Assembly: GCA_964106915.2 (NCBI GenBank)
Contig: OZ066925.1
Origin: Podarcis gaigeae
Lineage: Eukaryota
Strand: one strand, 5' to 3'
DNA length: 64,000 bases
Shown: positions 24,632 to 30,625 of the stretch, piece by piece
Numbering within the stretch: position 1 is the first letter of the stretch
How the letters are laid out: every line of letters begins with the position of its first letter
Program-made: the position numbers and the translations under genes
The notes under the pieces: model-generated
The model's input: the letters and a program-made list of their open reading frames with translations, nothing else
The model's database searches: none
Told to the model about the DNA's origin: nothing

Positions 24632-26930
24632 TATGTGTTGTGTGAACTGGTACATCCTTTTCATTTAAACTGATTTTCCCACCATTCAGCTTCACTGGAT
24701 GATTCTAGATTCTAATATTACGAGACATTGAGAAAAACTTATCTTCTCCTCACCAGGTATATCTTTATACACTTCCATGTCTCACTCCTTAATGTTTTCC
24801 CCCAAAACATAACATCTGAGCTGTTACTCTCAGCCCCAACCCAACTTGCAAAATGGAGATAGTATCTTACACAGGTGTTATAGATGAGAGAACGGAAATA
24901 AAGTACTTTGAACAATCCAGAAGGACCATATATTGTGGGAAAGTATTTAGGAATGTTGCAAATAAAAGGTATATATATTCAGACAAAGCCAGCCATGGCC
25001 ATGAAGAACTCTGTGGCAAACCACAATTGACCTAGCCATTGTTACATCATATGCTCCTAGATTTGGTTGGGGAGGTAGGTTCATCTGGAAATTGATTGCT
25101 CTTTGCCTTTAAGGCCAAGGCAGCCAGAACCTGAGTAGACATCAGGCAGTTCTTAGGACAGCCCAGTCCTACTGACACAGTAAACAACTTTATTCAAACA
25201 TGTACTAAATCCACCTTGAGGACCTAAGACATAGAAAGCTGAGACATAAATAGCTGAAATAAGCAAGTGCTATAATCAGTCCAAAGTAAGCTGTATCATT
25301 TAAATGTAACAACCAGTAGCCATTTTAGATTAATGAAGTGATTTGCATAGATCTCTTTATTTGCAAACTTCAAGAACACAACAGAGAGCAGAAGCAAAAC
25401 TATACAGTGTAATACTGACAGACCACTAAATAGTTCAGGACACTTTTATATGAAATTAATAGATTTATTTGTATTAGCTCAGATGACGTTTCTGTATTTG
25501 CCTAGACTAGACATGACAGCTCCTGTGCAAAAAACAAACATACAAACAAAAAAACGCTGCTCCATTTGAGCAGATTTCCTGACTCAAGTTCAGATTTCTA
25601 GCGGCAAATATTCATGTTTAAGTCTGCTCATCTTGGAATTCAAATACTGCAACTGTCAAATGAGAGGGCAGTGCAGTGATTACATTTAGAGATTAAAAAT
25701 GGCACATACCTCAGGTATACCTACATTGGCGCACAAAGATAATACACCTTTATACTGTTAAGGGGGGAGGGGGAAAAGAAAAGGTAGTTGATCAATGTAT
25801 AGTTTAATAAGAGCCAAAGGCAGTGGAATCAAAAAGTAAGTCCTTTAAAAAAAATTATACCATTTTAAAAAGGTGTACACTACTCCATTAAGACAGCAGC
25901 AGTACTTAATCTGGTGTTACAACTAAGTAAAAATCACATTGCTGGAAATCAGTTTATCATAGTCTGTCCTCCTTAAGACTGGAGACAGGAAAAATATTAC
26001 ACAGGATTAGCAGGAAGACATGGTACCTATCTTTGAAAGGCATGAAATCAACACCATCTTCATGGACGAGATTTGATATAGAAATAATTTCAACTGTCCA
26101 TTTGTGGGAAAGGTTTAAGGGTTAACTTTCCCTGGCAATTCTGATCGGTAAACATTTGCAAGTCAAACAGGAACCTACTGCTGAGAAATCTCTATTATCC
26201 GGCATCTATTATCTCGCCTACCCAGTGATGGTTAATGTAGAGCAGTTCAAGTTATTCTTTATGTGTTAAAAGATTATAGTATAATCAGAACCACTCAATA
26301 ATAAATCAAAGGCTTTCCTTCAGAACCTGAAAACACTGGGGTGACGATTTTAACCAAAATAATGAAAAATGAAAAGATACCTGGAATAGCATTATATCCC
26401 ACGCACCTTTTGTTTTCTACGAGTCATGCATACTGCAGACGAAATGGTTTGTGCTAAACAGCCTCAAATCTATTTTTCTAATATTAAGCACAAAGGAACA
26501 ACACTGACAGCAAGCATGGTAAATAAATATCTCCCTTGAGAACAAGAGCAGCAGTCAGGAGCGCTGACATGCATGCTAGAGAAACCTCACACACCATTTT
26601 TTCCCTACCTGCACAAGTTGCCATTTGCTGCAGCCGTCAAAATCCCTCTTCCCCCTCTTCCCTGGTTGATTTCAAAAGGAAGGTTTTCAGGCAGTCTCTC
26701 AAGGCATCTACTAATATGCTTTACAAGTATAATATTCCAATTAAGCGTATCTTTAAGAGAAAATCCATTTTCTTCCTTGCTCAGGTAAACATGTTTACAG
26801 CTCCTGCCCGGAGACTGGGTGGTTCAGACTCCCATGTCACACACATGTCGTCAGCAACAAGAAAAGCCCCCTTTCTCTATCATTAACATTTTAAATAAGG
26901 TAAGGAGAGAGGAGCACTTTGCAAACTTAC

Positions 26931-26975
26931 CTTTAATATTGCCTCAACATTAAACAGACCACACAAATGCGTGCT
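26931..26975 (-). other. ZEB1: Candidate 45-nt alternative ZEB1 exon
   Basis: Minus strand reads CTAATTTCCTGTTTTAG|AGCACG...AATATTAAAG|GTAAGT: an acceptor with pyrimidine tract plus a consensus donor, inside a TE-free zone. Confidence 0.55.
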
Positions 26976-29170
26976 CTAAAACAGGAAATTAGCATTACAA
27001 TATCCCGTATATATCCTGATACTTGCTATAAATAAACCCACCCCATACAGAGCAGGGAGCTACTAGTTCAGAACCACCCGATCAACTAGTTAGTCGATTA
27101 GAAGGCCAATGTTTATGTGCGTGTTTCACGTTAAGTATCAGAAGTCGTAGCGCCCTCTCACCCGGGGAAACCATAATTCCTTCTCGGAGATATAAAAAAA
27201 AAAAATCCTGTCCAAAACGTCATGATCTCGGACCAACCACTAGAACCCTTCCAATCCATAACCGTATACAGGAAATGCCAAACGAAAGCTTTAAAAAAAA
27301 CTGCCAAGAAAGGTTACAAAACCTCCCGTTTTACATCCTAAAAAGTCATCAGTTTTCCCGTTATTATTATTTTTTAATAGAATACGTAAGAAGAAAAATC
27401 CAACAACATAAGTTTTGAGTATTTATTCCCCCACTTTTCAACGCAGGTTTCAACTCATTTCAAAGTAATACGTATGCATAAAGGGGGGGGGGGTGAGAGA
27501 GAGAGACAGCCCTTAAATCTGAAAAGTAAGCGTCATTCCTTATATAGGCTGTAGCAGTTGTTCCTAGCCAGCGAAGAAAGGCGGGGAGGGGGCGCAGCGG
27601 ACAAACCGTTACCACCCATTATTATGATTATGATACAAACAGGTACCTCGAAATCCAAGAAGAGGGCGAGAAAGAGAAACTTGGCTGATTCACGTCCCCT
27701 CCCCAACCCACACAGAAAGAAAGCCTTCCTTTTGCTCGCTCTCTCTCCCCCCGCACCCCAATCACGTTGATAAAGGAGGGGAGAAGGGGGGAAAAAACAC
27801 CCACCCAACCTCACAGAAACACTTCCAACACTTCTGCCAAGATCTGGAGGTTGGCGGGGGTGTGGGAGGAGAAACAATATGTTCAATGGCTACGGAGATA
27901 AATCAACATGCACTGCAGGCACTAAAAGAGGCGGAGGCGAAAGTAGCGGGGGGGGGAGAAGAGGGGGGAGCAATACATAGAAGGCAGAGGAGGAGGGGCA
28001 GAGAAAAGGAGGGGGTCCCTTTCCAGGGCAATCTCAGGGGTGCGCATGTGGTGCGTTTCCCTTGTAAAAAAATGGGGAAAAAAGAAAATCAATACACACT
28101 GCAGCAAGCAACAGTACTTCCCCTCGCCTCCCGCTTTCCCCCCGCTTCTTCCCCAGCCGGGGCCAAAACACGCCACACGCCAGCGAACGAAGTCCCCATT
28201 ACAGTCATCCTGCCCTCGACGTTTTTGTTGCGTGTCTGGCAAGCAGGTAGTTCGGGAGTTACACGCAGTTTCCTCTGGATCTCTCCCCCCCCCCCACTCC
28301 AAACTATGAGCCTTAGCGCACCATCCACCCCCCACCATCCCAAAACAACAACAACAAACTATGGGGGGATCGCGAAGACTGGAGGTGGGAGGCTGCGGGG
28401 GGGAAAAGCGCCGCGCTTCCCTCGGGGGCTTTCCCCAGCGCGAGGGGAGGAGAGAGAGGAGGGGAAGTGACCCCCTCTCCCTCCGCAATAGCAAAGCCCC
28501 CCCCGAAACAAAAAGTTTGGGGAGCGGGGTCGGAGGGGGCGCCCCTTCTCCTCGGAGGCCGGCGAGACCCGCCTCAGCTCAGGTAATAAGTTTCCAAGTT
28601 GAGGTGAGGGGGGGACCGTTATAAGGTCGAAGGCGCGGCCTTCCTCTCTCTCTCCCCCCCCCCCCAAGAGAAGGGACCGGAGTGACTAGGAAAATAAGAA
28701 AGAAAGACACCCCCCGGCTCCGCTTCGCCCTCTCGCTCCTGAGGGAAAGAAGCCGGGGACGGGCGGCGGCCGGGCAAAATGAAGGGTGGGACACGGGGGA
28801 AGAGAAAGAGGAGGCAGCGGGCGGCGTGTAACGGTCCCCGGGCAGGGCTGATCCTCGCCGGCGAAGGAGGCTCGAGTGGAGGAGGCACCGCTAGGCGGAG
28901 AAGGAGGCAGCCCGGCGGCGGCGGGGAGGGAGAGCGCGAGGCGGGGAGGGAGGCAGGCAGGCAGGTAGCGGATCTAACGGTGCAGGGCGAGCCGGGCTCC
29001 CGGCGAGGAGCGCCCGGGAAATTACTTTCTACTTCTCGGATCTGCTTCTGTCTGTCTTCTTTCTTCTTCTTCCTCCCCCCCCCCCCGTTTTACTCCGCCC
29101 GACCCCCGGCCCGGTCCCCCCTGAGCGTCCCCGGCGCGGCGCGGGCCGTTGCCCGGCGGAGCTGACTGAC

Positions 29171-29228
29171 CGTTATTGCGCCTCGGGTTCGCCTGCTTCC
29201 TGCGCTTACACCTGGGGCCATCCGCCAT
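29171..29228 (-). CDS. ZEB1: ZEB1 (zinc finger E-box-binding homeobox 1) first coding exon, 58 nt, phase-1 donor
   Basis: Translates [19 protein letters not shown]+G, the ZEB1 N-terminus (ZEB2 has [24 protein letters not shown]). It is followed by the donor GTCAGT at 29170-29165. The 5' context GCATTTAGACACAAGCGAGAGGATC-ATGG has good Kozak (G at +4, A at -3). It lies in a CpG island. The ORF-track extension to 29022 is intron read-through. Confidence 0.96.
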
Positions 29229-29319
29229 GATCCTCTCGCTTGTGTCTAAATGCTCCAGTCACCTCCTCCCCCCTCCCTTCCCCCCTCCCCCTCGCCGCTC
29301 TCCCCCCCCCCACCCCCGC

Positions 29320-29535
29320 CCGGACCTGGTTTACGACACTGGGTGGTTGGGTGTATGTGTGTGTCTGTGTATGTGTGTGCGCGCGTGTGTGTATATGTCC
29401 TTTTCTTTTTTTTTTACTTTTTTACATCACCTTCCTACACCTAGTGCTCGGCCGCCGGAACCTTGTTGCCAGGGGAGACGGCCGCTTTACGGCAGCACGT
29501 TTGAACCGGCAGGAGGGAAAAGTTTCTTCTTCGCC
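29320..29535 (+). ncRNA. Possible 5' region of a divergent antisense lncRNA (ZEB1-AS1-like) / conserved promoter block
   Basis: Motifs TTTACGACACT, ACATCACCTTCCTACACCTAG, CCGGAACCTTGTTGCCAGGG and GAGGGAAAAGTTT occur in the order I recall for the human ZEB1 promoter/ZEB1-AS1. Transcription cannot be shown from sequence. Confidence 0.4.
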
Positions 29536-30419
29536 CCGCTTGGGCGCGACGCAGGTACCCGTGTGTGGCGCACGGGGCGCGGAGGGGGCGTCAGAAGGAG
29601 GGCCGGGGAATGGGAGGAGGAGGATTTGGGGTTAGAGAGAGAGGGAAAGTGCCTCTGGATGTGGGGTGTCTAAGGGGAGGGCCCAGAGGACGACACGGAT
29701 AGAGAGCGAGAGCGGTGCCCTCCGGCGCAATGGAGCCGGGCGAGCGCGCGTGAGCCGCTAGTGCTGGAGCCGGGCGAGGAGGCGCCGCTAGCCGCGCTGT
29801 TATTATTATTATTATCATCCTCATTATCACGGATTGCAATTTGTTGTCGCTTTATATCAGTACAGCACAAGCACACGCGCATCCGTATCAGCCCAAAGCG
29901 AACTAAAGGGAAAGCAACGAAAAGGCTTGCAGAGAGATAGAGAGGTGAAGTGTGGATTTGTTGTTTACACGTTTCATTCCTACGGTGTTTTTGTGCGCGT
30001 GAAGTTTTCGCGTGTGTGTAAGTTGTTGTGTCCTGGTTTTACCGGTAGAGCTTGGTAAAGCATCTTAAGTTCAGGAGTGTGGGATCATGCAGCTCGTTCA
30101 TGTGTACACTTGCTGGTGGTTTGCTGAATTGTGGGGACACGCACGGCCGGCTTTACTGTCGACACACGCCTTCCCAGGGATTCTGTTTGAACTGTTAGCT
30201 CGCTTAATGCAGATTATTTACTTATTTATTTAGAGTTTTAGACAATTCATCCTGCCCGCCCCTTCTGGGGGGAAAAGTGACAACAAGGCGATTTACAACA
30301 AAGTGAGAAGTAAGATGAAAAGAATACAGAAGGTTATAAAATAATGCAATCTTTAAAATTCACAACTCATAAAAATGCACGGAATGGCCATTTATTAAGA
30401 GCCGCAGTAGCAGCCGATT

Positions 30420-30625
30420 GATTGATTGCATTTGTAAAGCCCACCTTTTTTCTCCAAAGTGCTGAAGGTGGTGTATGTAGTTCATCCTCTCATTTAATTA
30501 CCACAACAACCTTATAAGGTGGGTTAGGCTGAGAGGCTGTGACTGGCCCGAGGTCACCCAGTGACCTTCATGGCTGAGTGGGAATTGGAATCCTGGTCTC
30601 GTAGGTCCTAGTCTAATACCCTCTC
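30420..30625 (-). mobile_element. Older Squam3-like SINE
   Basis: Contains gctgagaggctgtgactggcccgaggtcacccag, the reverse of the core seen in the 5687 copy, and a degenerate B-box. Confidence 0.65.

Follow-up and report, generated by a model that had tools for sequence, protein, structure and literature searches.

The closest described counterpart of the element studied here is exon 1C of human ZEB1, an alternative first exon whose leader measures 392 nt; it has been detected by qPCR and showed no IRES activity (PMC5775412). An "alternative exon 1" of human ZEB1 has also been screened in patients with primers, listed in Table 1 of PMC3611940 and read against NM_001128128.2, the record that PMC5488878 gives as ZEB1 transcript variant 1. 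The human exon is already annotated and in print, and the lizard stretch considered below is its probable orthologue. We take human exon 1C, NM_001128128, and the protein that begins MKV to be one and the same.

Other described systems resemble this locus in part. Poison (PTC) cassette exons are, like the lizard stretch, intronic, equipped with strong splice sites (in the lizard, at the level of motifs), and positioned so that their stop lies upstream of many exon junctions. According to PMC12776119, nonsense-mediated decay (NMD) is weak over roughly the first 200 nt after the start codon, with gene-specific boundaries that vary from about 21 to 100 codons and fall at 21 to 25 codons in LMNA and HBB. 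Initiation at AUU is known from TEAD1 and PTEN-beta (PMC5666671), a source that ranks AUU below CUG, GUG, and ACG and stresses a G at +4 and hairpins for non-AUG starts. Rat Zfhep2, a 5' variant, is predicted to be without finger 1 and some of finger 2; PMC2939884 attributes it to exon skipping, one coding exon being absent from the splice variant, and in the accessible part of that source no link to the exon considered here was found. The variant is cited to Manavella 2007 and to Cabanillas and Darling 1996.

We analyzed a 64,000-nt window of Podarcis gaigeae DNA (contig OZ066925.1 of assembly GCA_964106915.2), in which a reading of the sequence by itself, here called the original prediction, had placed a hidden 45-nt exon in ZEB1 intron 1. 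In the literature covered, with subscription journals mostly outside its scope, no ZEB1 intron-1 poison exon, AUU start, or reptile state was found.

Results

The host gene is ZEB1, whose exons 1 to 9 were mapped by tblastn with the Podarcis raffonei protein as query. Exon 2 shows 98 to 100% identity to Podarcis proteins and starts at G000:C24:19883461, and intron 1 measures 47,709 nt. When exon 2 was used in a metagenome scan, 1 locus emerged from 401 candidates, and it proved to be genomic exon 2 of a distant vertebrate. The coding part of exon 1 (29171 to 29228, minus strand) comprises 58 nt, or 19 codons plus 1 nt, and ends in phase 1. A GC-rich island at 28001 to 30000 (0.60 to 0.63, versus about 0.40 elsewhere) covers exon 1 and the promoter. 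The donor of exon 1 itself (29170 to 29165, minus strand), ACG/GTCAGT, matches the consensus at 7/9 positions and is weaker than the intronic donor at 26931, which matches at 9/9.

The candidate exon is present on the minus strand at 26931 to 26975 and, as predicted, ends at a textbook AAG/GTAAGT donor (26925 to 26930, minus strand) whose phase of 1 fits exon 2. On that strand the sequence upstream of 26975 reads ...CTAATTTCCTGTTTTAG, and the sequence downstream of 26931 begins GTAAGT. The candidate 3' splice site (26976 to 26995, minus strand) ends in TAG, has 9/10 pyrimidines at -13 to -4, and has its nearest other AG at -42; it is the best acceptor within 27700 to 26609. The CTAAT proposed as branch site is there, but its A lies at -14, nearer than usual; a second candidate A lies at -20. 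Branch adenines are usually 18 to 40 nt from the acceptor. The 26975 to 26931 stretch is single copy, with one match genomewide and no tandem repeat, and an Rfam search of 26880 to 30500 gave 0 matches.

Joined to exon 1, the 45 nt bring TAA and TGA into frame and reproduce the predicted reading, E-H-A-F-V-W-S-V-stop, with codon 28 as the stop, at a distance of 81 nt from the AUG. No AUG stands in the frame of exon 2. Seven bases before the donor, where we infer that mammals have the AUG of the MKV isoform, the lizard has ATT (26935 to 26937, minus strand), with A at -3, A at +4, and the phase required by exon 2; the position, the A at -3, and the phase had all been foreseen. An out-of-frame mini-ORF of five codons, MLRQY-stop, lies at 26933 to 26950 on the same strand. 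The premature TAA overlaps the AUG of this mini-ORF (a stop-start overlap at 26952 to 26933), and the MLRQY stop in turn overlaps ATT-AAA.

The splice motifs alone are unremarkable and near chance. One MAG/GTAAGT was seen in intron 1 against 0.67 expected, Markov simulations of the intron yielded at least one in 13/30 cases, an equally good acceptor was found 30 to 200 nt upstream of 15% of positions, and the donor score of 9/9 was reached at 2/606 G/GT sites. Position and orthology must therefore carry the case.

Both are addressed by the published human primers. The reverse primer of PMC3611940 matches the lizard at 18/19 bases with one gap, including 13 contiguous bases, at about 100 nt past the 26931 donor as placed by eye; such 13-mers are expected 0.003 times in intron 1. 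The last 8 bases of the forward primer lie at 27031 to 27024, 93 nt upstream of the donor, a match that occurs at 3 sites in 47.7 kb and belongs to a whole-primer match of only 12/24 bases. Between 27024 and 26880 there are two G/GT sites, and only that at 26931 ends AAA-G; two further donors discussed below, at 26609 and 26407, fall outside the pair, which thus brackets the 26931 site and no other. When the exon 1C leader-end primer (Table S1 of PMC5775412) was anchored 7 nt before each donor, on the assumption that the AUG adjoins it, the score of the 26931 site was equalled or exceeded at 15/606 sites (7/606 ungapped), a modest result. In unanchored scans, none of four exon 1C primers had its best match here, and 76 to 471 of 4,767 windows scored as well.

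The predicted homology with the human alternative exon thus draws support from the published primer positions, and 26975 to 26931 probably corresponds in the lizard to the 3' end of human exon 1C (ENST00000446923.6; NM_001128128.2). By primer mapping the two share their place in intron 1, both have a phase-1 donor that ends AAA-G and fits exon 2, and the end of the leader is similar; they differ in that the in-frame AUG inferred for mammals is an ATT in the lizard. Since the human exon is an alternative first exon, a pure 45-nt cassette is only one form that the lizard exon might take. Presumably the human exon is collinear with the lizard stretch and has the same internal acceptor, which we do not count as evidence.

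That the stretch arose by chance, as a pseudo-exon with no relation to the human one, would agree with the expected number of perfect donors and with the presence in intron 1 of 5 sites within one base of ATG-AAA-G/GT, one of them exact. Exon 1C flanks, however, occur only at 26931, the one site that the human primers bracket, and we consider such a coincidence highly improbable. The exact site, ATG-AAA-G/GTCAAT at 23 to 17 of the window (minus strand), was tried as the MKV orthologue and rejected; it stands 29 kb inside the intron with a donor of 7/9, weaker than that at 26931, lacks exon 1C flanks, and is probably a chance match.

Protein starts were compared in a sample of 280 rows, made up of the best 120 of 253 matches and up to 15 listed members from 20 clusters. 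The sample leaves out ten mostly placental clusters, and with them placental cassette forms and any human rows; its rows are gene models, not measured proteins, and models cannot show a non-AUG start. MKV stands before exon 2 in 10/280 rows and in 0/139 sauropsid rows, and the seven such rows with an assigned species are all from mammals (lemur, tree shrew, bat, armadillo [two rows], echidna, and platypus). The MKV isoform invoked by the original prediction therefore exists in mammals, and the AUG form appears to be mammalian in this sample, with no sauropsid row ending K-V before exon 2 (139 rows). Gain in mammals and loss in sauropsids would fit the sample equally; the suggestion that the mammalian AUG arose later is compatible with it as one of these two directions.

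Several other models bear on the same intron. The opossum model starts MQV. In the sugar glider (Petaurus), 2 rows have a stop-free, in-frame cassette of 12 codons ending V-K, which matches the 26931 donor weakly (31/606 sites score as well); identity of the two exons would mean a stop that is not conserved, a possible difference from poison exons. N-termini of Podarcis X1, Ascaphus, platypus, Macrotis, Anolis sagrei, and axolotl models were also tried at the 26931 donor and set aside, 111 to 585 of the 606 sites being equal to it. Monotreme (P0228/P0229/P0235), tailed-frog (P0268/P0269), and sugar-glider (P0253/P0255) models have differing in-frame cassettes that sit between exon 1, or the MATCA start described next, and exon 2; those of monotremes and the tailed frog did not map to the lizard intron. 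Judging from these models, small exons seem to come and go frequently in ZEB1 intron 1.

A second alternative exon end, absent from the original prediction, lies at 26609 to 26624 (minus strand). It reads ATG-GCA-ACT-TGT-GCA-G/GTAGGG, giving a protein start of MATCA and a CAG/GTAGGG donor 322 nt beyond that at 26931. MATCAV maps here at 15/15 positions, uniquely among the 606 sites, and is modelled more widely than MKV, in 33/280 rows from coelacanth to mammals, Podarcis included, and in 21/139 sauropsid rows. The best acceptor upstream of MATCA is again that at 26975, so that an exon of 367 nt or a first exon with several donors is possible. A possible third donor, AAG/GTGCGT (26407 to 26434, minus strand; 8/9), has an in-frame stop in the lizard, and its upstream codons are the best match among the 606 sites to the Xenopus laevis N-terminus MMPPTQKTK (20/27, the next best being 17). 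It may be a third ancient donor of this intronic block.

RNA was checked in 4 of 24 listed runs over 26880 to 27470; exons 1 and 2 lie outside that stretch, so junctions would be visible only as loose ends. Raw runs X23 and X24 gave 0 reads, with about 12% of each run read, and X1 gave 0 contigs, leaving these three without coverage. Run X3, whose status as RNA is a guess, gave one unspliced contig of 219 nt (26955 to 27173, strand not assigned; depth 2.4) that reaches only 21 nt into the candidate exon and could stem from a long first exon, from pre-mRNA, or from DNA. It differs from the genome at four positions, all upstream of 27052, a distribution without significance (about 0.09 in a hand calculation). 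At the exon the 4 runs, of which X3 alone had coverage, showed neither junctions nor loose ends.

These data bear on the possibility that the stretch is orthologous but unused, its DNA being conserved for an intronic promoter or the MATCA exon while 26931 is no longer spliced. The 4/4 runs with neither junction nor loose end, the unspliced state of the sole contig, the absent AUG, the lack of K-V endings among sauropsid rows, and motifs near chance would all suit it. On the other hand, unused sites tend to decay, and here the donor still scores 9/9 against 7/9 for exon 1, with the best acceptor in 27700 to 26609, while three of the four runs, having zero coverage, amount to no test. We regard disuse as a real but rather doubtful possibility.

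The candidate exon, if included after exon 1, would place its stop ahead of eight further coding exons and more than 50 to 55 nt upstream of the last junction. NMD of such transcripts, part of the switch proposed in the original prediction, may or may not follow. Lying a mere 81 nt (27 codons) beyond the AUG, the stop falls inside the 200-nt zone of weak NMD, though just past the LMNA and HBB boundary (PMC12776119), and in this the locus departs from poison exons. The exon would work most like a stop-bearing or noncoding alternative exon and may be a poison exon.

Re-initiation leading to a useful protein is unlikely, because the 618-nt interval between the stop and Met220 holds 22 out-of-frame AUGs, several with A at -3, and Met220 itself sits inside the second zinc finger. 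The re-initiation switch offered in the original prediction is accordingly weakly supported. The same AUGs weigh against the idea that the exon is the leader of a short, N-terminally truncated ZEB1 that starts at Met220, like rat Zfhep2, and competes with the full-length protein. Models starting at MTSHK, the Met220 type, make up 18/280 rows (13/139 among sauropsids, several with 2 to 4 accessions each), which is what transcription of leaders lacking an in-frame AUG would produce; these models may, however, come from other leaders, and annotation pipelines would be likely to output such models for any AUG-less leader. As Zfhep2 is described as exon skipping and not as a use of this exon (PMC2939884, in the part available), we find such a leader function unlikely.

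Initiation at the AUU, yielding an equivalent of the mammalian MKV isoform, has in its favor that the ATT shares the frame of exon 2, that no stop follows it, and that, as in TEAD1 and PTEN-beta, a purine (A) stands at -3. Unlike those proteoforms, the lizard codon has A rather than G at +4 and no strong downstream hairpin (structure at +10 to +70 is weak, at -8.5 kcal/mol, z -1.8 versus mononucleotide shuffles), and AUGs compete upstream. One of these is out of frame 13 nt before the ATT, and a first exon starting at about 27350 would have eight before the donor (27355 to 26931), none of them open into exon 2. With AUU a low-ranking near-cognate codon (PMC5666671) and an AUG-bearing alternative start already available at 26624, the near-cognate start fares poorly and is in our judgment very improbable.

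Discussion

The reading that we prefer, at about an even chance of being right, is that the lizard stretch is the counterpart of the 3' end of exon 1C and that its splicing, if it occurs, probably yields transcripts without full-length ZEB1. The 26931 donor would be used at a low rate and by either of two routes. In one, an intronic start site upstream would give a first exon lacking an in-frame AUG; in the other, the 45 nt would be included as a cassette after exon 1 and introduce the stop at codon 28. By either route ribosomes would meet many out-of-frame AUGs before Met220, and the exon would divert transcripts and dampen ZEB1 output through decay or unproductive translation. It is the MATCA donor, 322 nt beyond that at 26931, that would instead give rise to protein from this intronic block.

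A more elaborate history can be imagined, in which a conserved ZEB1 donor switched roles across amniotes through single-codon changes seven bases before it. In monotremes and placentals it would serve a first exon begun by an AUG, in a marsupial an in-frame cassette free of stops, and in lacertids an exon whose AUU still initiates the same short-headed ZEB1, controlled by an overlapping five-codon upstream ORF. We give this scenario very little credence.

The preferred reading, in which transcripts are diverted from full-length ZEB1, may matter for the dosage of the gene. ZEB1 is dosage sensitive, with truncating alleles causing corneal dystrophy (PMC3611940), and a conserved transcript-diverting exon could therefore tune its level. 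Alternative first exons and stop-bearing exons are common, so that the lizard exon would be a detail of comparative value rather than a novel mechanism. Should lizards splice the exon although it has no AUG, the MKV protein of mammals would be younger, or less constrained, than the splice site. Such AUG-less splicing, if true, would suggest that the part of human exon 1C in RNA regulation is as important as the protein that it encodes.
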